DNA of 64,000 nt from Bacteroidetes bacterium CG12_big_fil_rev_8_21_14_0_65_60_17 (GTDB lineage Bacteria; Bacteroidota; Rhodothermia; Rhodothermales; UBA10348), in the NCBI GenBank assembly GCA_002787815.1, contig PCUY01000072.1:30973-94972 (forward strand). The letters are read 5' to 3'. This document shows, piece by piece, positions 55,346 to 63,808 of this stretch (position 1 is its first letter; each line of letters starts with the position of its first letter). A program made the position numbers and the translations under genes. The notes beneath the pieces were generated by a model. It was not told where the DNA came from, did no database searches, and worked only from the letters and a program-made list of their open reading frames with translations.

Positions 55346-56014
55346 ATGCGTATGGATATGGAAGAATTGAGAATTCAGGGGACAGATCACGTGCTGCGCC
55401 CCGGAAAACTCGTGTGCGTGGGGCGCAATTACCTGGCCCATGCGCGTGAAATGAAGAGCGATGCCCCGACCGAACCCATGCTCTTCCTGAAACCGGCGAG
55501 CAGTCTGACGGGTTTCGGCGGTCAGATTCTGCTGCCGCCGCAATCGGATGACGTGCATCATGAAGTTGAACTGGTTGTCGTCGTTGGACGCCGGTTGTGC
55601 CGGGCAACACCGGACGAAGCGATCGATGCGGTTGCGGGGCTTGCTGTGGGACTCGACCTTACGGCACGTGATATTCAACAGAGGGCCAAGGAGCGGGGGC
55701 ATCCATGGAGTGTATCGAAAGGCTTCGACACGTTTGCTCCCCTGGGGACCGTTGTGGAAGCCGATCCGGAGCAGCCCCGTCGCATCTCCCTGAAAGTCAA
55801 TGGTACCATAAGACAGAAGGCTTCCACAGCAGACATGCTTTTCCCGGTTGCTGACCTCCTGGTGTATGCGTCCGGCATTTTTACGCTCCATCCCGGGGAT
55901 CTGCTTTTCACGGGGACACCCGAGGGGGTGGGACCGGTGCGCGAAGGCGATCTGCTCGAGGCGGAGATCGAGGGACTTCCGATTCTTGAGATCAGTGCCG
56001 ACCGTAGGCGCTGA
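55346..56014 (+). CDS. fumarylacetoacetate hydrolase (FAH)-family protein
   Basis: GKLVCVGRNYLAHAREM, HHEVELVVVVG, and the C-terminal GDLLFTGTPEGVGPV. I trimmed the 306-aa ORF to the ATG at 55346, because its 5' part runs antisense through rplU. Confidence 0.85.
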   Translation: MRMDMEELRIQGTDHVLRPGKLVCVGRNYLAHAREMKSDAPTEPMLFLKPASSLTGFGGQILLPPQSDDVHHEVELVVVVGRRLCRATPDEAIDAVAGLAVGLDLTARDIQQRAKERGHPWSVSKGFDTFAPLGTVVEADPEQPRRISLKVNGTIRQKASTADMLFPVADLLVYASGIFTLHPGDLLFTGTPEGVGPVREGDLLEAEIEGLPILEISADRRR

Positions 56015-57224
56015 GGTAAGCGGTCACGAATCCGGAGGCTGTCTGTCGCGGGCGAATGAGTTCTACCGTTCCGTCGCCGTGAATCCAGACCTCGGCCGGC
56101 AGCGGACGCATGTTGTAGGTGGACGAGAGAGACATGCCGTACGCTCCGGTGTCAAGTATGGCCACGATGTCACCTTCAGAGAGCTTCGGTATGTCCCTGT
56201 CCCGGGCAAAGAAGTCAGCCGATTCGCAGATATTACCGACTACATCATACGTTTCGGGGGGGGCGTCCGGGCGCGACAGATTGCAGATCGTGTGCCAGGC
56301 GTTGTAGAGTGCCGGACGGAGGAGGTGGCCCATCCCAGTGTCCAGGCCGGCGAACGTGCGCTTTCCGGTGGACTTGATGGTATTTACGCGGCTGAGCAGG
56401 ACGCCCGACTCGGCCGTGAAGTAGCGACCCGGTTCAAACCTGATTTCCAGATCCGCAGACGGGTGGGAGTCCACGAACTGTCTGATCGAGGCAACAATGG
56501 TGGATTCAAACGTCTCAAGATCGAGTGGTGCTTCGTCATCCCGGTACGGTACGCCAAGGCCGCCTCCGACGTTGACAAAGCGCAGGTCCGGGAGTGTCCG
56601 GGCGGTTTCCAGTATGACGGTCGCGGCATCCCACAGGACGTCCGTACGCAGTATGCCGCTGCCAATGTGCTGGTGGAGACCAATGATCCGAAGGTCATGC
56701 GCGGCTGCAATTTCCCGCACGCGGTCCATCTGTTCAATCGGGATACCGAATTTGCTCTTGTCACCGCCCGTCACCACATGTGCGTGGTGACCTGCTCCGA
56801 TCTGCGGGTTGATACGAATGCAGACATCACTTCCGTTGTACATCTGACCGAGCCGCTCAAGCCTCGATAATTCGCCGATATTCATGGCGACGCCAGCCTT
56901 CACCGCATGATGCATTTCCTCATCGGTCATATTGTTGGCCGAATAGAGGATATTTGCCGGGTCAAAGCCAAGACGCAGACAGAGGTCAAGTTCTCCCGGC
57001 GAAACGGCGTCAATTCCCAGCCCGGCACTGCGCATGACATTGAGCAGCGGCGGACAGTGATTGGCCTTCATGGCATAGAGAAGGCGTGCAGGGATACCCG
57101 TCAGGCAGCGGGCCAGATCGTCAATGCGCGTCTTTACGGTTGTTTCGTCATAGACAAAGACGGGTGTGCCGTGCTCGGCGGCAATCTGTTTCAGCAGATC
57201 GGGATGGAATGGTCGGGTGGACAT
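55992..57224 (-). CDS. lysA: diaminopimelate decarboxylase
   Basis: Fold-III PLP decarboxylase motifs YAMKAN, HQHIGSG, GGGLGVPY, EPGRYF and CESAD; 410 aa. Confidence 0.88.
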   Translation of the reverse strand: MSTRPFHPDLLKQIAAEHGTPVFVYDETTVKTRIDDLARCLTGIPARLLYAMKANHCPPLLNVMRSAGLGIDAVSPGELDLCLRLGFDPANILYSANNMTDEEMHHAVKAGVAMNIGELSRLERLGQMYNGSDVCIRINPQIGAGHHAHVVTGGDKSKFGIPIEQMDRVREIAAAHDLRIIGLHQHIGSGILRTDVLWDAATVILETARTLPDLRFVNVGGGLGVPYRDDEAPLDLETFESTIVASIRQFVDSHPSADLEIRFEPGRYFTAESGVLLSRVNTIKSTGKRTFAGLDTGMGHLLRPALYNAWHTICNLSRPDAPPETYDVVGNICESADFFARDRDIPKLSEGDIVAILDTGAYGMSLSSTYNMRPLPAEVWIHGDGTVELIRPRQTASGFVTAYLSAYGRH

Positions 57225-57976
57225 CAGAGTAGCAGTTCGGCAACAATGAAATCAGCGATCAGGATGTTCACACAACTCACAACGACGGCCTGCGTCGTTG
57301 CGTTGCCGACGCCCTGGGCGCCTCCATGCGTATTGAATCCTTTCCAACAGGCAATGGACGTGATGATATATCCGAACGCAATGGACTTGGTCATGCCGTA
57401 AACGGCATCGAAGGGCGCAAAGTACGTGCGGGCACCGCGCACGAACGCATCCATCGAAAGAAATCCCATGTACTCACCGGCGAAGCCGCCGGCCGTGACC
57501 GCAACGAGAGCGGAGGCAACATACATGGCCGGGAACATGAGAAGGCCCGCCAGAACGCGTGGCAGGACGAGGTGACTGACGCTGTTGAGCCCCATGGCTT
57601 CGAGCGCATCGATCTGTTCCGAAACCTTCATGGTACCGATTTCAGCAGCGACGCTGGCTCCTACACGCGAGGCCATGACCAAGCCAGGGACGAGAGCGCA
57701 GAGCTCCAGCATGAGTGTCGGGACGACGATGGCCCCGATGGCATCTTCCGTAAGAACGGTGTTCTGGAGTTGGTAGGCCGTCTGGAGCGTTGTTACGATA
57801 CCGGCAAATGCACTGGCAAGCATGACCACGGGAAGGGCGTTGAAGCCCAGCCGCACGGCCTGGTGGAAGACCTCCCGGCGCAGGTGTACGGCCGAGCGCG
57901 CCGAGGACACGGCTTTGCCCATGAACAGCACGTAGTTGCCAAGGGACGACACAAGACTGGTAACGGGCGTCATCAT
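57224..57976 (-). CDS. mlaE: MlaE-family ABC transporter permease (no adjacent ATPase or MCE partner)
   Basis: RLGFNALPVVMLASAFAGIVTTLQ, EIGTMKVSEQIDALEAMG and the GGAQGVGNATTQAVV core motifs of MlaE/Ttg2B permeases. Confidence 0.85.
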   Translation of the reverse strand: MMTPVTSLVSSLGNYVLFMGKAVSSARSAVHLRREVFHQAVRLGFNALPVVMLASAFAGIVTTLQTAYQLQNTVLTEDAIGAIVVPTLMLELCALVPGLVMASRVGASVAAEIGTMKVSEQIDALEAMGLNSVSHLVLPRVLAGLLMFPAMYVASALVAVTAGGFAGEYMGFLSMDAFVRGARTYFAPFDAVYGMTKSIAFGYIITSIACWKGFNTHGGAQGVGNATTQAVVVSCVNILIADFIVAELLL

Positions 57977-57977
57977 G

Positions 57978-60641
57978 TCATGAATCGGAAATTGCGCTGG
58001 ATGTTCGGGCGGCAGGGTTGGTCAACGCCGTGTCTCTTTTGCGGGCTTCGCGCAATGTGCGCCATATGTTGCCGATGCCGTCGGGTTGGACGCCTTGTTG
58101 TCTGTTTGCGCTTCCAATACGGAAGGCAAGCATCCACTGGTTCATGAGCGTGAGCCACGCCCTGATAAGGGACGTATCCGGATCGTATATGTGTGTCGCT
58201 TCGGAAGATACGCCGTTGAGCTCCAGGATTTTGAAACCGTCTCCATGGACGAGACGGCCCGGGTCGGGCACCCGGACGTCGTATCGACCGAAGAAGAAAC
58301 CGTCTGTCTGACGGGAAATCCGGTCAATCGTTTCCGAGAGGGCAGGACTCATGTGTAGGCTTCCATCCAGGAAAAGGGCGCCACGGCAGTGCGTGCCCAC
58401 CTCGGCAAGGGGAATCCGCGTACCCTCCTCGAAAACATGGCCGAGATCGGAGGAGAATCGCTTCATGAAGAGGGGTGCCATGCTGACGGCGCGGTCATCA
58501 TCCAGAATGAGCCGCTCAAGGGTCCGGCGTCCATCGGCGCGTAGCCAGACGGGACGTTTTTCCGTCACTGAAAAAATCCATCCCACTGACTGCCCGGGTT
58601 CGCGAATGTAGAATATGCCGAGTTCCAGGCCATCTACGAATTCCTGGGCAATGATGTCGCCATTGTTGTGGGAGAAATAGTGCTCAATGTCTGCCCGGGA
58701 CCGCGCAATCCAGACGCCCTGCCCGCGTTCACCCACATCAGGTTTGAGAACAATCGGATACGACAATCCGTGCTGCTCCATGAAGGCGAGCACCCGTTCG
58801 GTCCGGTTGCCGGCGGTTGAAGGGATGAGGCGCCATGTGGCGACGTGGTCTTCGCTGTGGCTGAGAAGGCCGAGGATGTCCTGCTTGCGCTCACCCAGGA
58901 AGCCGCCGGTAAACATACCGGGGTTGGCGGCAGTGAACAGGGTCAGGGAGCGGTGCCGGATGGCCAGGATGAGTATCCACACGGCGATTGGGGCATAGAA
59001 GATATATGCCGGCCAGAATTCCCACCGGGATATACGGTGCCACCGGGAGAGGAGTCGGCGCCGTCCGTTGTGCGTCGTGAGTGGGATTCCCACGTGGATG
59101 CTCACGTACAGGACGGCCACCAGAATGACAAGGATCCAAAGGGCGTAAGCCTCATATGCGGCATAGAAATCGAAAATACCCATGCCGGCCCACGCCGAGA
59201 GTCCCGTAATGAGCGGCGTCCAGACAACGGCGGCTGCCAGGAAGTATCCCAGGAATACCCAGAATGGTGTCCGTAGCAATCCTGCGGCGACGTAGGTGGG
59301 GAGACGGGTTCCGGGCACAAACCGACTGGCCAGGATGACGTGCGGACCCTTCTCGCAGAACCAGCTGGCACCGCGCTCGAGCTGGGACTCCTTGAGCATC
59401 CAGGAAAACGGTGGGATGGTGAGCAGGCGTCGTCCCAGCAGCCGCCCCGCGGCGTACAGACCAACATCCCCGATCACAATGCCGAGGAAGGCAGCCAACA
59501 GGGCAATTTCAATGGATATCGTGCCGCGTGCGGCGAGCAGGCCGGCTCCAATGGCGGAAAGATCCTCGCTGATGAACGAGACGAATATGATCAGGACAAC
59601 CAGGACGAAGAGGCCGAATCCGGATGAAGGGGGTACGTTTGCGGCATCGAACGGGAGCCTGGAAGCGCGTACACGGTTCTCTTCGGCTGTGGCGCGGGTC
59701 GGCGCCTCCCGGCGCTCGACCCGCGCCACAAATTCTCCGATATACCGGGCCGTCATTTCGGCTTCCTGGAAGGGCAGGCCGTGTCCGTGTGCCTCGAGCC
59801 CGACCAGCTCGCTCTGCGGTACGAGGCGGTGGTGTTCGAGTGCCGCCTCGAATGGCACGAGTGGGTCGTCTTTTCCATGTATGATCTGCATCGGGCCATC
59901 CCAGCAAGAGAGATGGTCACGCAGCGGGCGCTGGTCCGTATCGTAGAAATTCCGAGCGTAGGACATACCCAGGATGGCATCGTCAAACCACCCAAAATGT
60001 GGCACCAGCTCAGACACGGTCCAGATGGCGGCAAGCTGCAATGCATGAACTGCCCGATTCAGGTGGTACTCGCCCATGAGTTCCAGCTCCTGAACGCCAA
60101 TGGACGAGAGCAGCTGAAGCGAGGCCATTCGGCGGGGCGCAGCGTGGGCTGCTTCAATGGCGACACCTCCGCCCATGCTGTATCCGACAAGATGCGAGCG
60201 TGCAATGCCAAGCGAGTCCTGCAGTGCCAACAGGTATTTCGCGTGTGCGGCAATGGAGTAGTCTTTGATGTGCCGCGTCGACCCACCGAAACCCGGTAAA
60301 TCGGGGGTGATAACGCGGAAACGTCCCCCGTCGGAGAGTTCCTTGTGCAGCGCCCGCAGGGAACGGGATGCAACCGGACTGCCGTGCAATACGATGATCA
60401 CGGGGAGCGCCGTCGGAACGGCAGCAGGGGTGGAGACCGGCTGTGAGTCCAGGAACGCCATGCGTACGGGCGTGGCACCGGGTTCGAGTGCCACCATGCG
60501 AACGCGTTGATCGTCGAGTGGTCCCGGTTCGTCCTGCATCCACCGGGTCAGGTGTGATGCCGCAAGCAGCACCAGCCAAACCAGAAGAATTTGTCCCACG
60601 AGCCGCCGCAGGCGGCTCGTGGATGCCTCCTTTTGCGTCAA
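57978..60641 (-). CDS. 887-aa fusion: alpha/beta hydrolase + DedA/VTT membrane domain + extra TM hairpin + ATP-grasp carboxylate-amine ligase-like domain
   Basis: aa ~78-305 form an alpha/beta hydrolase (HGSPV, nucleophile elbow GYSMGGG, HGKDDPLV, HGHGLPFQ). aa ~340-490 are DedA-like (FISEDLSAIGAGLLAARG, ASRFVPGTRLPTYVAAG). aa ~595-845 are ATP-grasp-like (YPIVLKPDVGERGQGVWI, IIAQEFVDGLELGIFY, FKILELNGVSSEATHIYD). Confidence 0.75.
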   Translation of the reverse strand: MTQKEASTSRLRRLVGQILLVWLVLLAASHLTRWMQDEPGPLDDQRVRMVALEPGATPVRMAFLDSQPVSTPAAVPTALPVIIVLHGSPVASRSLRALHKELSDGGRFRVITPDLPGFGGSTRHIKDYSIAAHAKYLLALQDSLGIARSHLVGYSMGGGVAIEAAHAAPRRMASLQLLSSIGVQELELMGEYHLNRAVHALQLAAIWTVSELVPHFGWFDDAILGMSYARNFYDTDQRPLRDHLSCWDGPMQIIHGKDDPLVPFEAALEHHRLVPQSELVGLEAHGHGLPFQEAEMTARYIGEFVARVERREAPTRATAEENRVRASRLPFDAANVPPSSGFGLFVLVVLIIFVSFISEDLSAIGAGLLAARGTISIEIALLAAFLGIVIGDVGLYAAGRLLGRRLLTIPPFSWMLKESQLERGASWFCEKGPHVILASRFVPGTRLPTYVAAGLLRTPFWVFLGYFLAAAVVWTPLITGLSAWAGMGIFDFYAAYEAYALWILVILVAVLYVSIHVGIPLTTHNGRRRLLSRWHRISRWEFWPAYIFYAPIAVWILILAIRHRSLTLFTAANPGMFTGGFLGERKQDILGLLSHSEDHVATWRLIPSTAGNRTERVLAFMEQHGLSYPIVLKPDVGERGQGVWIARSRADIEHYFSHNNGDIIAQEFVDGLELGIFYIREPGQSVGWIFSVTEKRPVWLRADGRRTLERLILDDDRAVSMAPLFMKRFSSDLGHVFEEGTRIPLAEVGTHCRGALFLDGSLHMSPALSETIDRISRQTDGFFFGRYDVRVPDPGRLVHGDGFKILELNGVSSEATHIYDPDTSLIRAWLTLMNQWMLAFRIGSANRQQGVQPDGIGNIWRTLREARKRDTALTNPAARTSSAISDS

Positions 60642-60643
60642 AA

Positions 60644-61177
60644 TCAGGTCCTACTGCCTGTAACAAGAGAAGCGCGATGTTGGAGCGTCGACGGGGCGAC
60701 GCCGAAATCCGGAGTCGGCTCCACCCCCTGGATGCGAAGAATGATCGCGATCAGGGCGTAATGGTGTATGGTATGGGCCTGCAAATACTGAAGCTCCCTC
60801 AATATGGTGGAGTTGGAAAGGGGTGAGGAGCTGTCCGGAGCGTGGGAAGCAGCCATTTTTATTTCAAGTGCTGCGTCGGAGGAGTCGATTGCATTCAGAT
60901 CGTCAATGAGGTTTCCCATCACATCAATGGCAAAACTGCGACTGGACGATATCCTGTCGTCCCGTTTCCGGGCATCGTAGTCAACTCGTCCGGAGGCAAG
61001 CCCGTCGAGGAACAGTTGATAGTGTTCCACAATGTGGCGCATATGCTCACCCACACCGGACGGGAAAAGTGCAGCTCGGGTCGCTGTGTATTGCTCATCG
61101 GTGAGTGAGGCAAGAAGGTCCATGCCTTGCCTGATATGCACCTGGTTCAGGGCTACAAGGTTGTCTGTGCGCTTCAT
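60644..61177 (-). CDS. DinB-family (four-helix-bundle, metal-binding) protein
   Basis: His-rich helices (GEHMRHIVEHYQLF; YLQAHTIHHYALI) are typical of the DinB/YfiT-like superfamily. Confidence 0.65.
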   Translation of the reverse strand: MKRTDNLVALNQVHIRQGMDLLASLTDEQYTATRAALFPSGVGEHMRHIVEHYQLFLDGLASGRVDYDARKRDDRISSSRSFAIDVMGNLIDDLNAIDSSDAALEIKMAASHAPDSSSPLSNSTILRELQYLQAHTIHHYALIAIILRIQGVEPTPDFGVAPSTLQHRASLVTGSRT

Positions 61178-61944
61178 CTGGCTGTCGTTGTGGGTGACTG
61201 CAAATATAGGTTTTCTACGGAATGGAAAGCGGCCTTGGACAATGTCTTACGGTCCGCGGGCTCAATGGGTGCGTGTCCGTACTGGATACGTGCATTGAAT
61301 CGCGGAAACGTTAGCAGGCGCCACAAATGGTCTGCAAACGTCATGTCTCCCCACCAGCACAGATCCGTCCTGGCATCGCCGCCTGGCAGATCATAGGATA
61401 TGGCTGCCGTGTGGACAGGCAGTCCGACTTCGGCAGGAACGGACATGAGCGATGCCTTGAAGGGGAGTATACCGGCCCCGGAAGATGACGTGCCCTCAGG
61501 AAAAAAAACGATACCGTCGCCTTCTGCAAGCACGTCGCGCATGTCGGCCGCTACCCGAGGTATGTCGCGGCTGCGTGATCGGTCAATGAAAATGGTGCCA
61601 AACGTTCTTGCCAGCCATCCGATGCCTGGCCACGCGGCCAGGTCGGCACGCGAGACGAGCCGCGCTTTTGTGGTGGCGATGACCACGAGGATATCAAGGT
61701 AGCCTTGGTGGTTGGCCACAAGACAGAAAGGCGGCTCGGGCGGGACACCCCTCACGTCCAGACGGCACCCCATGATACGGAGAAGGCCATCGGCCCACCG
61801 TGTTGTGATGGCATGCCGCCATGAGACACGGCCATGAACGCTTCTGTTCCGATACAGGCCGACAGCCCACCAGGTGAACGTCAGGAGGAGGGTATGAAGG
61901 ACGATGGCCACGAGCCGTCCGCCGGCTCGCACACGCTTGATCAT
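61174..61944 (-). CDS. PlsC/OlsA-type lysophospholipid (O-)acyltransferase
   Basis: HX4D motif NHQGYLD, FFPEGTSS, and an N-terminal membrane anchor. 4-bp overlaps with both neighbours. Confidence 0.8.
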   Translation of the reverse strand: MIKRVRAGGRLVAIVLHTLLLTFTWWAVGLYRNRSVHGRVSWRHAITTRWADGLLRIMGCRLDVRGVPPEPPFCLVANHQGYLDILVVIATTKARLVSRADLAAWPGIGWLARTFGTIFIDRSRSRDIPRVAADMRDVLAEGDGIVFFPEGTSSSGAGILPFKASLMSVPAEVGLPVHTAAISYDLPGGDARTDLCWWGDMTFADHLWRLLTFPRFNARIQYGHAPIEPADRKTLSKAAFHSVENLYLQSPTTTAR

Positions 61945-62741
61945 GAAAGGGTATAGAACGCCAGATCGGACTCCTGCAGGTTCTTCACGTCGAAGAGTGC
62001 AAGGAAGTCTATTGTCTTGAATTCCCGGTCCATGGCTGGAGGACCACAGATTCGGGCTCCAAAACTAAGGTACGCACGCATGAGGCGCGGCGGTCGAACG
62101 GGTTCGATTGTGGATCCCGCCGGAATTTCATCGCAACAGGCATGATCCGGTTGCGGAAAGATGTGCACATCCGGATGCATGTGTCCATGCTGCACCAGGT
62201 ATGCATACACGGCACGTCCCTCGAGTGGGTCCTGGCTGGTCAGGGAGCAACAACCGAACAGGAAGCGTGTACCCGTCGCCTGCAGGTAGTATCCGATACC
62301 TTTCCAGAGCAGGTAGAGGACTTTCAGGCTTCGATGCTCCCGCAATATGCACGCTCGGCCTGTTTCCACACTCCGGTCAAGAATGGAACTTGGCACGCTC
62401 GAAAAATCGAACTCGTTCCGGGAGTACCAGCCTTGGCCCGCGCGCGCCATGGAGGCGGTTTGCATCCTGTACGTACCGACGATCCGTCCCGATGGAACGT
62501 GCCGTACGAACAGATGATGAAACACATCATCGTAGCGGTCGCTGTCACGACCTGTGTCGTGCGATGCGTCCAGCCCTTCATTCAACTCCAGGTTGAATAC
62601 ATTGTAGCGCAGTTCCTGGACGGCATGCAACTCGGCCTGTGTATGAACCCAGCTCAACTCATATGCCCCGTTGACAAATGTCCGGTCCGGGGGACGCACC
62701 GCACCACTCGGGCGATTGGATATGTCAGGCTGTGCGCTCAT
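61941..62741 (-). CDS. OlsB/GlsB-type GNAT N-acyltransferase (N-acyl amino acid / aminolipid synthase)
   Basis: ELHAVQELRYNVFNLELNEG...DRYDDVFHHLFVRH...IVGTYRMQ...YSRNEFDF...ETGRACILREHRS resembles the hemolysin-like OlsB family (Acetyltransf_5-type). Confidence 0.78.
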   Translation of the reverse strand: MSAQPDISNRPSGAVRPPDRTFVNGAYELSWVHTQAELHAVQELRYNVFNLELNEGLDASHDTGRDSDRYDDVFHHLFVRHVPSGRIVGTYRMQTASMARAGQGWYSRNEFDFSSVPSSILDRSVETGRACILREHRSLKVLYLLWKGIGYYLQATGTRFLFGCCSLTSQDPLEGRAVYAYLVQHGHMHPDVHIFPQPDHACCDEIPAGSTIEPVRPPRLMRAYLSFGARICGPPAMDREFKTIDFLALFDVKNLQESDLAFYTLS

Positions 62742-62804: not shown

Positions 62805-63170
62805 ATGTCGGACGTCACACTTTTCACATGGGACAGTATGCCCAAGGAAGAACTGTCACCTCAGATTTCGCGCCGCCTCGTGAGCGGCGAGCGTGTGATG
62901 TTGGCGCACGTCTACCTCAAAAAAGGAAGCATTGTACCGCGTCACCAACACGACAACGAACAGATCACGTACATCCTTGAAGGGTCACTCCGCTTTTTCA
63001 TTGGCGAGAACGGTGAAAAGGTGGTCGATGTCCATGCCGGCCAGGTTCTCCACATTCCATCCAATGTCTGGCACAAGGCAGAGGCGCTCGAAGATACCCT
63101 TGACGTGGACGTATTCAGTCCGCCGCGGCAGGACTGGCTGGATGGTTCGGATGCCTATCTTCGGGGCTGA
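62805..63170 (+). CDS. cupin-domain protein
   Basis: The 121-aa C-terminal part of a 342-aa ORF. It starts at ATG 62805 (MSDVTLFTWDS...) and has cupin motifs (PRHQHDNEQITYILEG...HIPSNVWH). The upstream part of that ORF runs antisense to the olsB-like gene. Confidence 0.8.
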   Translation: MSDVTLFTWDSMPKEELSPQISRRLVSGERVMLAHVYLKKGSIVPRHQHDNEQITYILEGSLRFFIGENGEKVVDVHAGQVLHIPSNVWHKAEALEDTLDVDVFSPPRQDWLDGSDAYLRG

Positions 63171-63808
63171 CCAGCAGTTGACAGGGAACGGAGGTACTTC
63201 TTGAAACCGGGTTTGTTGTAATTGGCCATGCCGGAGTGGACCGTACCGAGCGTGCCATCCGATCCAATGACATAGGTTGTGGGAAGTACGCGACTTGTGT
63301 ACGGCTCCGGAAGCGGGCCGGCGAGCCGATATACGGGAAGCGTGAACCCTTTCTGCTCCATGTAGAGCTTCGCCTCCTGCGCCGTATCGTCGGTGGAGAT
63401 CATTACAAAGATGATATCCTCATCCTGCACGTCCTGGTAAAGCGCCTCGATATAGGGCATTTCTGCGAGGCACGGAGGGCACCAAGTCGCCCATATGTTC
63501 ATGAAAATGGGTTTTCCCTTGAACCGGGAAAGCGACACGGGTTGGCCGTCCAGCGTCACGAGGTCGACGTCGAAGTTTGCCGGCACCCGTTTTTCTTCGG
63601 CCCAGTTCACGTCTGCCTGGAAGAGCCCCGTCGCCAGGACCGCCTGCTGCAACCATCCCTGTGCCGTTGTGCCTGTATCGGAAAAACGGAAGAAGGCGAA
63701 TATGCCGACGATGGCGACCGCCTCCGCCAGGAGGCGCAGTCGGGAACGGCGCTTCGGCTGTGTATTCCGGTTGTGTGTTTCTGTTGGGGTCTCGTGGTTG
63801 TGCATCAC
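63155..63808 (-). CDS. TlpA-family thiol:disulfide oxidoreductase (membrane-anchored thioredoxin fold)
   Basis: TM anchor followed by FMNIWATWCPPCLAEMPY (CxxC). Confidence 0.85.
   Translation of the reverse strand: MMHNHETPTETHNRNTQPKRRSRLRLLAEAVAIVGIFAFFRFSDTGTTAQGWLQQAVLATGLFQADVNWAEEKRVPANFDVDLVTLDGQPVSLSRFKGKPIFMNIWATWCPPCLAEMPYIEALYQDVQDEDIIFVMISTDDTAQEAKLYMEQKGFTLPVYRLAGPLPEPYTSRVLPTTYVIGSDGTLGTVHSGMANYNKPGFKKYLRSLSTAGQPRR

Follow-up and report, generated by a model that had tools for sequence, protein, structure and literature searches.

A widespread hydrolase, DedA and ATP-grasp fusion protein is genetically coupled to aminolipid synthases and is a candidate for lipid head-group extension

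A single open reading frame (ORF) in a 64,000-nucleotide stretch of DNA from Bacteroidetes bacterium CG12_big_fil_rev_8_21_14_0_65_60_17 (contig PCUY01000072.1; hereafter the window) encodes an alpha/beta hydrolase, a DedA/VTT transporter core and an ATP-grasp ligase in one membrane protein. In related loci, the intact ligase, transporter core and hydrolase are genetically coupled to each other and to aminolipid synthases. The ORF (57978..60641, minus strand) has a TTG start and specifies a three-domain inner-membrane protein of 887 amino acids, with the stop codon included in these coordinates. Aminolipids, among them ornithine, lysine, glycine and Ser-Gly lipids, make up a major class of phosphorus-free membrane lipids and are immune-active. 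We give even odds (a probability of about 0.5) to the reading that this protein is an inner-membrane enzyme of an aminolipid pathway of the ornithine-lipid type, in which the ligase would extend the lipid head group, the DedA core would flip the product and the hydrolase would trim it outside. By analogy with known reactions, the protein is a good candidate for a missing aminolipid head-group-extension gene.

Residue numbers in the protein were mapped onto window coordinates and checked, and conservation is judged here from an alignment of 64 full-length homologues. Pfam recognizes three domains in the 887-residue product: hydrolase, VTT_dom and a marginal RimK-type ATP-grasp. This is the order (hydrolase, DedA, ATP-grasp) that the first-pass annotation had read from the translation, and profile searches, fold comparison and intact key residues agree with it; all motifs quoted in that annotation are present, and the key residues are invariant across the alignment. 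NCBIfam gives only sub-threshold matches for the protein (many alpha/beta hydrolases, UptA, DedA and an archaeal Ddl-like ATP-grasp). The protein belongs to the ATP-grasp, DedA/VTT and alpha/beta-hydrolase superfamilies and to no characterised equivalog. A literature search found neither a characterised member of the fusion family nor a paper that describes the fusion or its gene cluster.

The C-terminal domain (residues 581-850; 58092..58901, minus strand) is confirmed by profile search, structural modelling and invariant residues as a predicted ATP-grasp carboxylate-amine ligase with an intact catalytic site. A profile built from 22 C-terminal segments matches, among PDB sequences, cyanophycin synthetase 2 (7ta5) at E = 8.6e-9 and CphA1 at E = 3e-6, together with a RimK-domain protein, GshAB and Ddl; profile positions 93-282 align with 7ta5 residues 229-435, from the VLKPD lysine to the E-x-N motif. 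The AlphaFold2 (AF2) model of residues 530-887 has a pLDDT of 86.3. Comparison of this model with PDB structures by Foldseek gives 388 matches at E<=1e-3, with GshAB (3ln6) at the top (3.3e-10), 3ln6, 7ta5 and 7wae at E values of 3e-10 to 2e-9, dozens of Ddl entries, and a probability of 1.00 for the listed matches up to 1e-6. The earlier description of this domain as ATP-grasp-like is borne out by the profile, the modelled fold and Foldseek alike, and a non-ligase fold was rejected because the PDB profile search and Foldseek both return ATP-grasp ligases. Invariant residues include the adenosine triphosphate (ATP)-binding lysine K633 (in VLKPD; 58743-58745), R639-G640, Q666, R786, D788 and the Mg-binding E807-x-N809 (58215-58223). 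The fold, the VLKPD lysine, the Gly-rich loop and the E-x-N motif are held in common with the CphA G-domain (7ta5, 7wac, 7lg5), RimK (8fxh), GshAB (3ln6) and Ddl. Identity to these known ligases is only about 15-18%, however, and the family's own RimK Pfam score is barely at threshold (21.4 bits against a cutoff of 21, over only 57 residues, 614-670). The family also differs from CphA1 and CphA2, with which the alignment covers the ATP-grasp part alone: it has no counterpart of the Mur-ligase-like M domain of CphA1, and the remainder of the chain consists of hydrolase and DedA domains.

The family also differs from known ATP-grasp ligases in being membrane-bound and in a unique N-terminal ‘RWEFWP’ helix, probably membrane-dipping, which always accompanies this ATP-grasp domain. 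The segment that precedes the ligase (residues 523-580; 58902..59075, minus strand) comprises an Arg-rich cytoplasmic linker, the hydrophobic ‘RWEFWP...P...R’ helix and an FTAANPG segment, with W540, E541, W543, P551, R564, P574 and G580 invariant. An extra transmembrane (TM) hairpin had been proposed here (RWEFWPAYIFYAPIAVWILILAIRHRS), but the region contains a single hydrophobic helix (residues 545-562) that is positively charged on both flanks. The hairpin was rejected on these flanks and because some stand-alone homologues have this helix as their sole hydrophobic element, with a positive stretch before it. The helix is probably a monotopic anchor that dips into the cytoplasmic leaflet without crossing the membrane, because positive charge flanks it on both sides and because it precedes a domain that is necessarily cytoplasmic in the stand-alone proteins.

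The DedA/VTT membrane core (residues 339-522; 59076..59627, minus strand) is recognized by VTT_dom (PF09335; residues 368-481, 53.4 bits against a cutoff of 33.9) and by alignment with Escherichia coli YqjA. Its layout is a re-entrant hairpin 1 with E359 and D360, a positively charged loop (396-438), a re-entrant hairpin 2 with R440 and R446, and then two TM helices; all four of these charged residues are invariant. Residues E39, D51, R130 and R136 are essential in YqjA, and D51, R130 and R136 align with D360, R440 and R446, respectively; E39 has no aligned partner in this core, and the neighbouring E359 is invariant. VTT_dom, the two re-entrant hairpins, the acidic residue and arginines spaced six apart are shared with other DedA/VTT transporters (UptA, YqjA/YghB, the phosphatidylethanolamine transporter PetA, and TMEM41B/VMP1). 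Hairpin 1 here has the form S-E-D-L..IG.G, whereas that of YqjA has the form E...P.PGD, and in contrast to other DedA proteins a hydrolase of about 300 residues is inserted ahead of the core and an ATP-grasp domain follows it. A published survey of DedA domain fusions contains only rhodanese, PAP2 and pyridine-nucleotide oxidoreductase fusions; a fusion with a hydrolase or ATP-grasp domain is absent from it. The best named NCBIfam matches of the core are UptA, an undecaprenyl phosphate (UndP) transporter, and E. coli DedA, both below cutoff, and the UptA equivalog level is not reached (NF052604, 44.1 bits against 250; NF052605, 30 against 300). In E. coli K-12 (L085:12774-15955), the DoxX gene yqjF and the glutathionyl-hydroquinone reductase gene yqjG are both found some 2 kb away from yqjA; this proximity recalls the co-occurrence of DedA and DoxX in the clusters described below but may be coincidental.

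The alpha/beta-hydrolase domain (residues ~46-310; 59712..60506, minus strand) matches Abhydrolase_1 (PF00561; residues 80-180, 82.7 bits) and Abhydrolase_6 (PF12697; residues 82-295, 58.6 bits). It has the features of this family, namely a match to the fold models, a G-x-S-x-G nucleophile elbow, a Ser-Asp-His triad and an H-G oxyanion motif. Nucleophile S155 (60177-60179), acid D259 (59865-59867), base H287 (59781-59783) and the oxyanion motif H86-G87 are invariant, and the invariance of the triad suggests that the domain is catalytic. Its relatives in the PDB are generic esterases and C-C hydrolases. A precedent for the use of this fold in aminolipid synthesis is OlsI (Sinac_1601), an alpha/beta-hydrolase-fold O-acyltransferase of the OlsH/OlsI ornithine-lipid pathway that acts on lyso-ornithine lipid (PMC12493201). 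This precedent makes a transacylase role for the hydrolase domain possible, and five loci have OlsB and a hydrolase-bearing fusion with no OlsA. As a rule, however, replacement of OlsA by an OlsI-like hydrolase is unsupported: OlsA and the hydrolase domain occur together in 26 loci against those five, and the hydrolase here is predicted to be periplasmic, where acyl-acyl carrier protein and acyl-coenzyme A are absent.

Several arguments bear on how these domains are placed in the membrane. The chain begins with a TM helix, TM0 (residues 14-32; 60546..60602, minus strand), recognized by hydropathy and the positive-inside rule and ending in a conserved S-H-x-x-R; from its charge pattern, a net-positive cytoplasmic N-tail would be followed by TM0, which would carry the hydrolase across the membrane. 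Positive-inside counts over the family mark the N-tail (+2.1), loop 396-438 (+5.0) and linker 520-542 (+5.5) as cytoplasmic and the surroundings of 358-374 and 479-500 as periplasmic. Substituted cysteine accessibility (SCAM) data for YqjA place A20, S52, V59 and V180 in the periplasm and V99 and L117 in the cytoplasm (bioRxiv 10.1101/2021.10.18.464800); the former align with N335, L361, L368 and F490, and the latter with T408 and W427. Homologues that lack the hydrolase show three N-terminal patterns: TM0 kept with a short loop; a Sec signal peptide or lipobox in its place (‘LIGC’ in L014, ‘LVSC’ in P0135; also P0183 and P0254); or a start at DedA helix 1 with no positive charges. From the charge counts, the YqjA alignment and these signal peptides, we infer that the N-terminal end of the DedA core, and hence the inserted hydrolase, is periplasmic; the ATP-grasp domain is taken as cytoplasmic because it needs ATP. 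A cytoplasmic hydrolase was rejected on the periplasmic position of YqjA A20, the signal peptides and lipoboxes found at that point in the chain, and the positive-inside counts. The predicted topology is thus N-terminus in, TM0, periplasmic hydrolase, DedA core with its N-end out and C-end in, linker, monotopic WEFWP helix and cytoplasmic ATP-grasp domain; the first-pass annotation had not assigned the domains to sides of the membrane. The full-length AF2 model is confident, with a pLDDT of 89.2 and a pTM of 0.65. In hydrolase-less DedA-ATP-grasp proteins from Verrucomicrobiota and other groups (L014:2178-4049, L072:8284-10071; P0135, P0183, P0254), a lipobox (LIGC, LVSC or LVGC) replaces the N-terminal helix, and such a form, judged from this motif, would be a rare polytopic DedA protein that starts with a lipidated cysteine.

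The protein had been described as unusual, but its family is widespread over many phyla and the fusion is one of several arrangements of the same modules. A whole-protein homologue search gives 1,931 proteins at E<=1e-5 among 8,000 candidates scored, and the best 120 of these are nearly all 780-910 residues long with the domain order of the window protein. A scan with one genome per species gives at least 588 confirmed matches; those listed include Bacteroidota/Rhodothermia, Acidobacteriota, Gemmatimonadota, Verrucomicrobiota, Desulfobacterales, Calditrichota, KSB1, Lentisphaerae and Kiritimatiellia. An exhaustive hidden Markov model (HMM) search of 1.84 billion cluster representatives gives 1,647 clusters (50% identity) at E<=1e-30. 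By length, the best 150 of these representatives comprise 75 full-length proteins, 54 with DedA and ATP-grasp only, and 21 shorter than 460 residues, a stand-alone class that may include fragments; examples of the shorter forms were also inspected individually. Homologues carry database names such as ‘alpha/beta fold hydrolase’, ‘VTT domain protein’, ‘D-alanine--D-alanine ligase’, ‘DedA/pimeloyl-ACP esterase’, ‘RimK-like’ or ‘hypothetical’, and a second search, with the stand-alone form as query, brought up nothing beyond metagenomic entries labelled ‘hypothetical’ or ‘RimK-like’. Only about 14 of the best 120 homologues have a precomputed ATP-grasp Pfam hit; that standard Pfam screens mostly miss this domain would explain why genome mining has overlooked the family. 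It is almost certainly wrong to regard the 887-residue ORF as an assembly or annotation artefact in which a frameshift or misjoin has united three genes. Separate-gene versions do occur in Proteobacteria, but an 83-kb JGI contig encodes a protein 100% identical to this ORF, full-length orthologues with 79% identity and identical synteny occur in two independent metagenome-assembled genomes, and the same three-domain ORF is present in 45 of 59 related loci from many phyla. These observations already refute a chimera, which had been named earlier as a possibility to be checked; the architecture recurs in hundreds of independent assemblies.

Gene order was compared in 59 related loci whose upstream sequence extends over 6.5 kb or more (individual loci are cited by L numbers). 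The hydrolase is fused in 45 of them; about one locus in four and roughly half of the cluster representatives lack it. In 47 of the 59 loci the module has an aminolipid synthase close by, either OlsB (alone or with OlsA) or an OlsF type. OlsB is present at 40% identity or more in 39 loci, with a weaker OlsB-like match in eight more, and OlsA is present in 31. The most constant partner is a DinB-like gene (45 loci, 42 of them also with an OlsB-type gene), followed by TANGO2/NRDE-like (27) and DoxX-like (19) genes and a gene that joins Ferric_reduct and Rieske domains (12). Unbiased clustering of neighbouring ORFs recovers the same partner families and adds a family of about 620 residues in nine loci, mostly those with weak OlsB matches (Desulfobacterales, Verrucomicrobiota, Lentisphaerae and others). 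Two members that were checked are OlsF-type bifunctional aminolipid synthases, with full-length matches of 395-423 bits to the NCBIfam OlsF model. Two different synthase systems, OlsB/OlsA and OlsF, therefore stand beside the module in lineages from Vibrio to Acidobacteriota, which supports the aminolipid link; the earlier suggestion that the protein acts on the OlsB/OlsA product gains from this conserved synteny in 47 of 59 loci and in cultured Vibrio.

In some lineages the modules are fused and in others they are encoded by adjacent genes, which is classic evidence that they work together. Cultured hosts were located by tblastn against PLSDB. Paracoccus denitrificans PD1222 has separate adjacent genes for an ATP-grasp protein, an alpha/beta hydrolase and a VTT protein, and its hydrolase is 26% identical to the window hydrolase domain over 232 residues (E = 9e-11). 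Salinivibrio kushneri has separate adjacent genes for a VTT protein, a ‘D-alanine--D-alanine ligase’, a DinB family protein and an NRDE family protein, and Azospirillum has a DedA-ATP-grasp fusion. The ATP-grasp gene is PDEN_RS24485 in P. denitrificans PD1222 and AZOLI_RS25065 in Azospirillum lipoferum, and in V. aquimaris, as in Salinivibrio, it is annotated as ‘Ddl’. In Vibrio aquimaris (L090), dedA, ATP-grasp, dinB, nrde, doxX and olsF follow one another in a single run on one strand. In Vibrio cholerae, VCA0646 encodes a second ornithine-lipid synthase (OlsF2) and closes an uncharacterised putative operon of four genes, VCA0649-VCA0646 (PMC12186959); by analogy, the genes upstream of it may be DoxX, NRDE and DinB, with ATP-grasp and DedA genes beyond. 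A TANGO2/NRDE gene lies between the DinB-like and ATP-grasp genes in 27 of the 59 loci and in Vibrionaceae (examples are L002:7216-8004, L048:8099-8839, L089:9644-10426 and L090:9623-10276), which provides a bacterial context for the human TANGO2 family; this gene is absent from the window and from the Rhodothermia-type cluster. Upstream of OlsB, 8-15 loci (L002:3373-5722; L009, L027, L048, L069, L070, L081, L084 and others) have a recurrent three-gene set, which consists of a membrane protein of about 170 residues, a Ferric_reduct (MsrQ-like) and Rieske fusion of about 350 residues and a Cys-rich protein of about 260 residues without a family match. This set may serve to tailor the same lipid by oxidation, and the DinB-like, TANGO2/NRDE-like, DoxX and Rieske/ferric-reductase partners hint at redox or sulfur chemistry.

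In the window, the fusion gene lies within a minus-strand run of olsB, olsA, dinB, fusion, mlaE and lysA, in which all junctions are overlaps or gaps of 1-2 bp. The first gene of the run encodes an OlsB-like amino acid N-acyltransferase of 266 residues (61941..62741; Pfam Acetyltransf_5), and the second an OlsA-like lyso-aminolipid O-acyltransferase of 256 residues (61174..61944; Pfam Acyltransferase) that overlaps each neighbour by 4 bp. The OlsB-like protein scores about 113 bits on the NCBIfam OlsB models (equivalog cutoffs 320-350) and has no match to the NCBIfam GlsB model; the OlsA-like protein scores 139 and 114 bits on the OlsA models (cutoff 300). Because the N-acyltransferase matches OlsB and not GlsB models, the lipid probably has a side-chain amine, and its amino acid is probably of the ornithine or lysine type. 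Directly upstream of the fusion, across a 2-bp gap, is the gene for a DinB-like protein of 177 residues (60644..61177; Pfam DinB and DinB_2). This protein has a four-helix, His-rich signature with H45, R47, H48, Y67, R70, R72, H135, H138 and H139 invariant, followed by FGVAPST; PDB searches give no sequence match and only a weak profile match, to 3dka, and NCBIfam is uninformative. The gene that starts the downstream part of the run, 1 bp from the fusion, encodes an MlaE-like permease of a lipid ATP-binding cassette transporter (57224..57976; Pfam MlaE, 213 bits), and a LysA-like decarboxylase gene (55992-57224) overlaps it by 1 bp. Neither MlaF nor MlaD is encoded immediately beside the mlaE-like gene, and the mlaE and lysA arrangement is kept only in closely related Rhodothermia/Bacteroidota loci (L001, L005, L006, L026, L039, L057). 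A scan of the operon for promoters and terminators found sites no more numerous than in shuffled sequence.

The pathway that we favour would combine these elements in four steps. OlsB and OlsA would build an N-(acyloxyacyl) amino acid lipid with a free alpha-carboxylate in the cytoplasmic leaflet. The ATP-grasp domain, held at that leaflet by its hydrophobic helix, would then phosphorylate the head-group carboxylate and ligate an amine or amino acid to it, and the product would be a dipeptide-type or amidated aminolipid, with chemistry as in cerilipin (taurine on the ornithine carboxyl) and Ser-Gly lipids. The DedA core would carry this product to the outer leaflet, where the periplasmic hydrolase would trim or remodel it, either by removal of the added group (homeostasis) or by removal or transfer of the ester-linked acyl chain. 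The CphA G-domain, RimK, GshB/GshAB and Ddl join an amino acid to a carboxylate of their substrate, mostly a peptide C-terminus, after activating it; the proposed direction of ligation, with the lipid carboxylate activated, follows these nearest relatives.

A comparison with MprF had been drawn earlier, as the same logic achieved with unrelated parts. The analogy is reasonable, and a periplasmic location of the hydrolase strengthens it, since MprF operons pair with a periplasmic aminoacyl-phosphatidylglycerol hydrolase (AcvB / PA0919 type). The shared logic is that of a cytoplasmic head-group modifier fused to a lipid-translocating membrane domain, with a hydrolase acting outside; here one chain would provide all three functions. 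Ligation would be driven by ATP through an acyl-phosphate, where MprF uses aminoacyl-tRNA; an aminolipid, not phosphatidylglycerol, is the presumed substrate, and the flippase is of DedA type. Pfam and NCBIfam scans of the 887-residue protein gave no match to models of MprF, lysyl-phosphatidylglycerol synthase or the MprF flippase, and there is no homology.

Reactions of the proposed type have been reported without their genes. In cerilipin from Gluconobacter cerinus, taurine is attached to the carboxyl of a (hydroxylated) ornithine lipid in an ATP-dependent reaction for which the gene is unknown, and Ser-Gly and Orn-Ser-Gly head groups also exist (PMC12971839). The gene for ligation of serine onto glycine lipid to form Ser-Gly lipid (flavolipin / lipid 654) has not been identified, despite a Pfam screen with two ATP-grasp models (PMC12746155). 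These orphan activities are those expected of an aminolipid-linked ATP-grasp ligase, but no evidence ties the present family to either producer (Gluconobacter and Bacteroides genomes were not searched), and the window N-acyltransferase is of OlsB and not GlsB type. Gluconobacter cerinus and Komagataeibacter both belong to the Acetobacteraceae, and homologues with 30% identity occur on Komagataeibacter plasmids, but in a different gene context. On Komagataeibacter medellinensis plasmid pGXY010 (L087:6079-9011), the homologue is a distant stand-alone form beside a class I S-adenosylmethionine methyltransferase and an ‘iron-containing redox enzyme family protein’, not ols genes, and it may have a paralogous function.

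Several points weigh against this pathway as we have drawn it. The family has no characterised member and no host for which a lipid product is known. Of the 59 loci, 12 (about 20%) have no aminolipid synthase within about 9 kb, and none is found in the 8-9 kb flanks examined in Salinivibrio, Paracoccus and Azospirillum. The OlsB- and OlsA-like neighbours in the window score well below equivalog cutoffs, so that the scores do not fix the amino acid in the lipid. The placement of the domains rests on sequence arguments, the reaction assigned to the hydrolase is a guess, and the model does not account for what the closely linked DinB-like and TANGO2-like genes do. The two-arginine hairpin of the DedA core also resembles that of UndP flippases (COG0586-like), with which a phosphate-bearing lipid is equally compatible. 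In an unlikely reading, the substrate would be another lipid (an undecaprenyl-phosphate-linked compound, a peptidoglycan precursor or a phospholipid head group) and the OlsB and OlsF neighbours would reflect only shared regulation of envelope remodelling. UptA and E. coli DedA as the best named matches favour it, as do the two conserved arginines, which are essential in YqjA and have been tied to UndP flipping by a survey of DedA subfamilies, and the synthase-free loci and proteobacterial flanks noted above. Against it stand the non-orthologous OlsB/OlsA and OlsF systems beside the module in 47 of 59 loci from Vibrio to Acidobacteriota, often in translational coupling, and the fact that unbiased clustering of neighbouring ORFs reveals no recurring peptidoglycan or polyprenyl genes.

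Even within an aminolipid pathway, ATP-grasp chemistry would allow the lipid to be either of the two substrates. It is unlikely that the polarity is reversed, with the ATP-grasp domain activating a small carboxylate (Asp, Glu or another acid) and the delta- or epsilon-amino group of an ornithine or lysine lipid attacking as nucleophile to give an N-delta-acylated or aminoacylated head group. Such a reaction suits the side-chain amine suggested by the OlsB-type match, and synteny supports it to the same degree as the carboxylate-activating route, but in the CphA G-domain, RimK, GshAB and Ddl it is the larger or first substrate whose carboxylate is activated, and a free amino acid is then added to it, and the sole known ATP-dependent modification of an ornithine lipid is at the carboxyl (PMC12971839). 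An improbable reading places the protein in a thiol or redox pathway, where the ATP-grasp domain would act in the manner of glutathione synthetase on a thiol peptide, either small or lipid-bound, and the DinB-like protein (a thiol-transferase fold), DoxX, Rieske/ferric-reductase and TANGO2-like partners would handle a sulfur or redox head group or repair oxidised lipid. Its appeal lies in the top fold match to the GshAB ATP-grasp domain, the constancy of the DinB-like partner (45 of 59 loci), the frequency of DoxX (19 loci) and the Ferric_reduct and Rieske gene (12), and a redoxin-type gene upstream in the Rhodothermia-type locus L001, at the position of an unannotated 217-residue ORF in the window (63155-63808). 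No gamma-glutamyl-cysteine ligase or other thiol-biosynthesis gene recurs among the neighbours, however, and the DinB-like protein has no significant match to characterised thiol transferases; such chemistry would in any case complement the aminolipid pathway, since the ligated amine could hold sulfur, as taurine does in cerilipin. The in-membrane-out order of ligase, transporter and hydrolase within one chain, together with an invariant triad that suggests a catalytic hydrolase, is also consistent with an export cycle in which the N-acyl amino acid lipid would be a reusable carrier: the ligase would load a cargo amine, the DedA core would flip it and the hydrolase would release it outside. 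We consider this cycle improbable, because release is not obligatory, given that about one quarter of loci and one half of cluster representatives lack the hydrolase, no cargo-biosynthesis genes recur among the neighbours, and the reasoning is purely architectural. The variant in which the hydrolase releases the cargo or passes it to an envelope acceptor, in a cycle run on aminolipids and not polyprenyl phosphates, is just as doubtful; a cycle of this kind, if true, would be a previously unknown lipid-carrier cycle and would provide a concrete biochemical role for bacterial DedA, DinB-like and TANGO2/NRDE-like proteins.

The aminolipid pathway remains the reading that we prefer, and it has wider implications. 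The substrates of DedA proteins are still debated, and the fusion points to a concrete lipid substrate class for one DedA branch. A connection to lipid head-group chemistry also emerges for bacterial TANGO2/NRDE and DinB-like proteins. A membrane-anchored ATP-grasp family that is tied to aminolipid synthases in many phyla is a testable candidate for head-group ligations that lack a gene, and the hypothesis can be tested directly because split-gene versions occur in cultured, genetically tractable Paracoccus denitrificans PD1222, Vibrio, Salinivibrio and Azospirillum.

Two loci have mobile or foreign insertions inside the conserved cluster. In L048 (5386-6792, minus strand), a transposase-like ORF of 468 residues is inserted between OlsB and the remaining cluster. 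In L004 (5811-8000, plus strand), a DNA methyltransferase gene (N6_N4_Mtase) and an ORF of 298 residues lie between the DinB-like and fusion genes.

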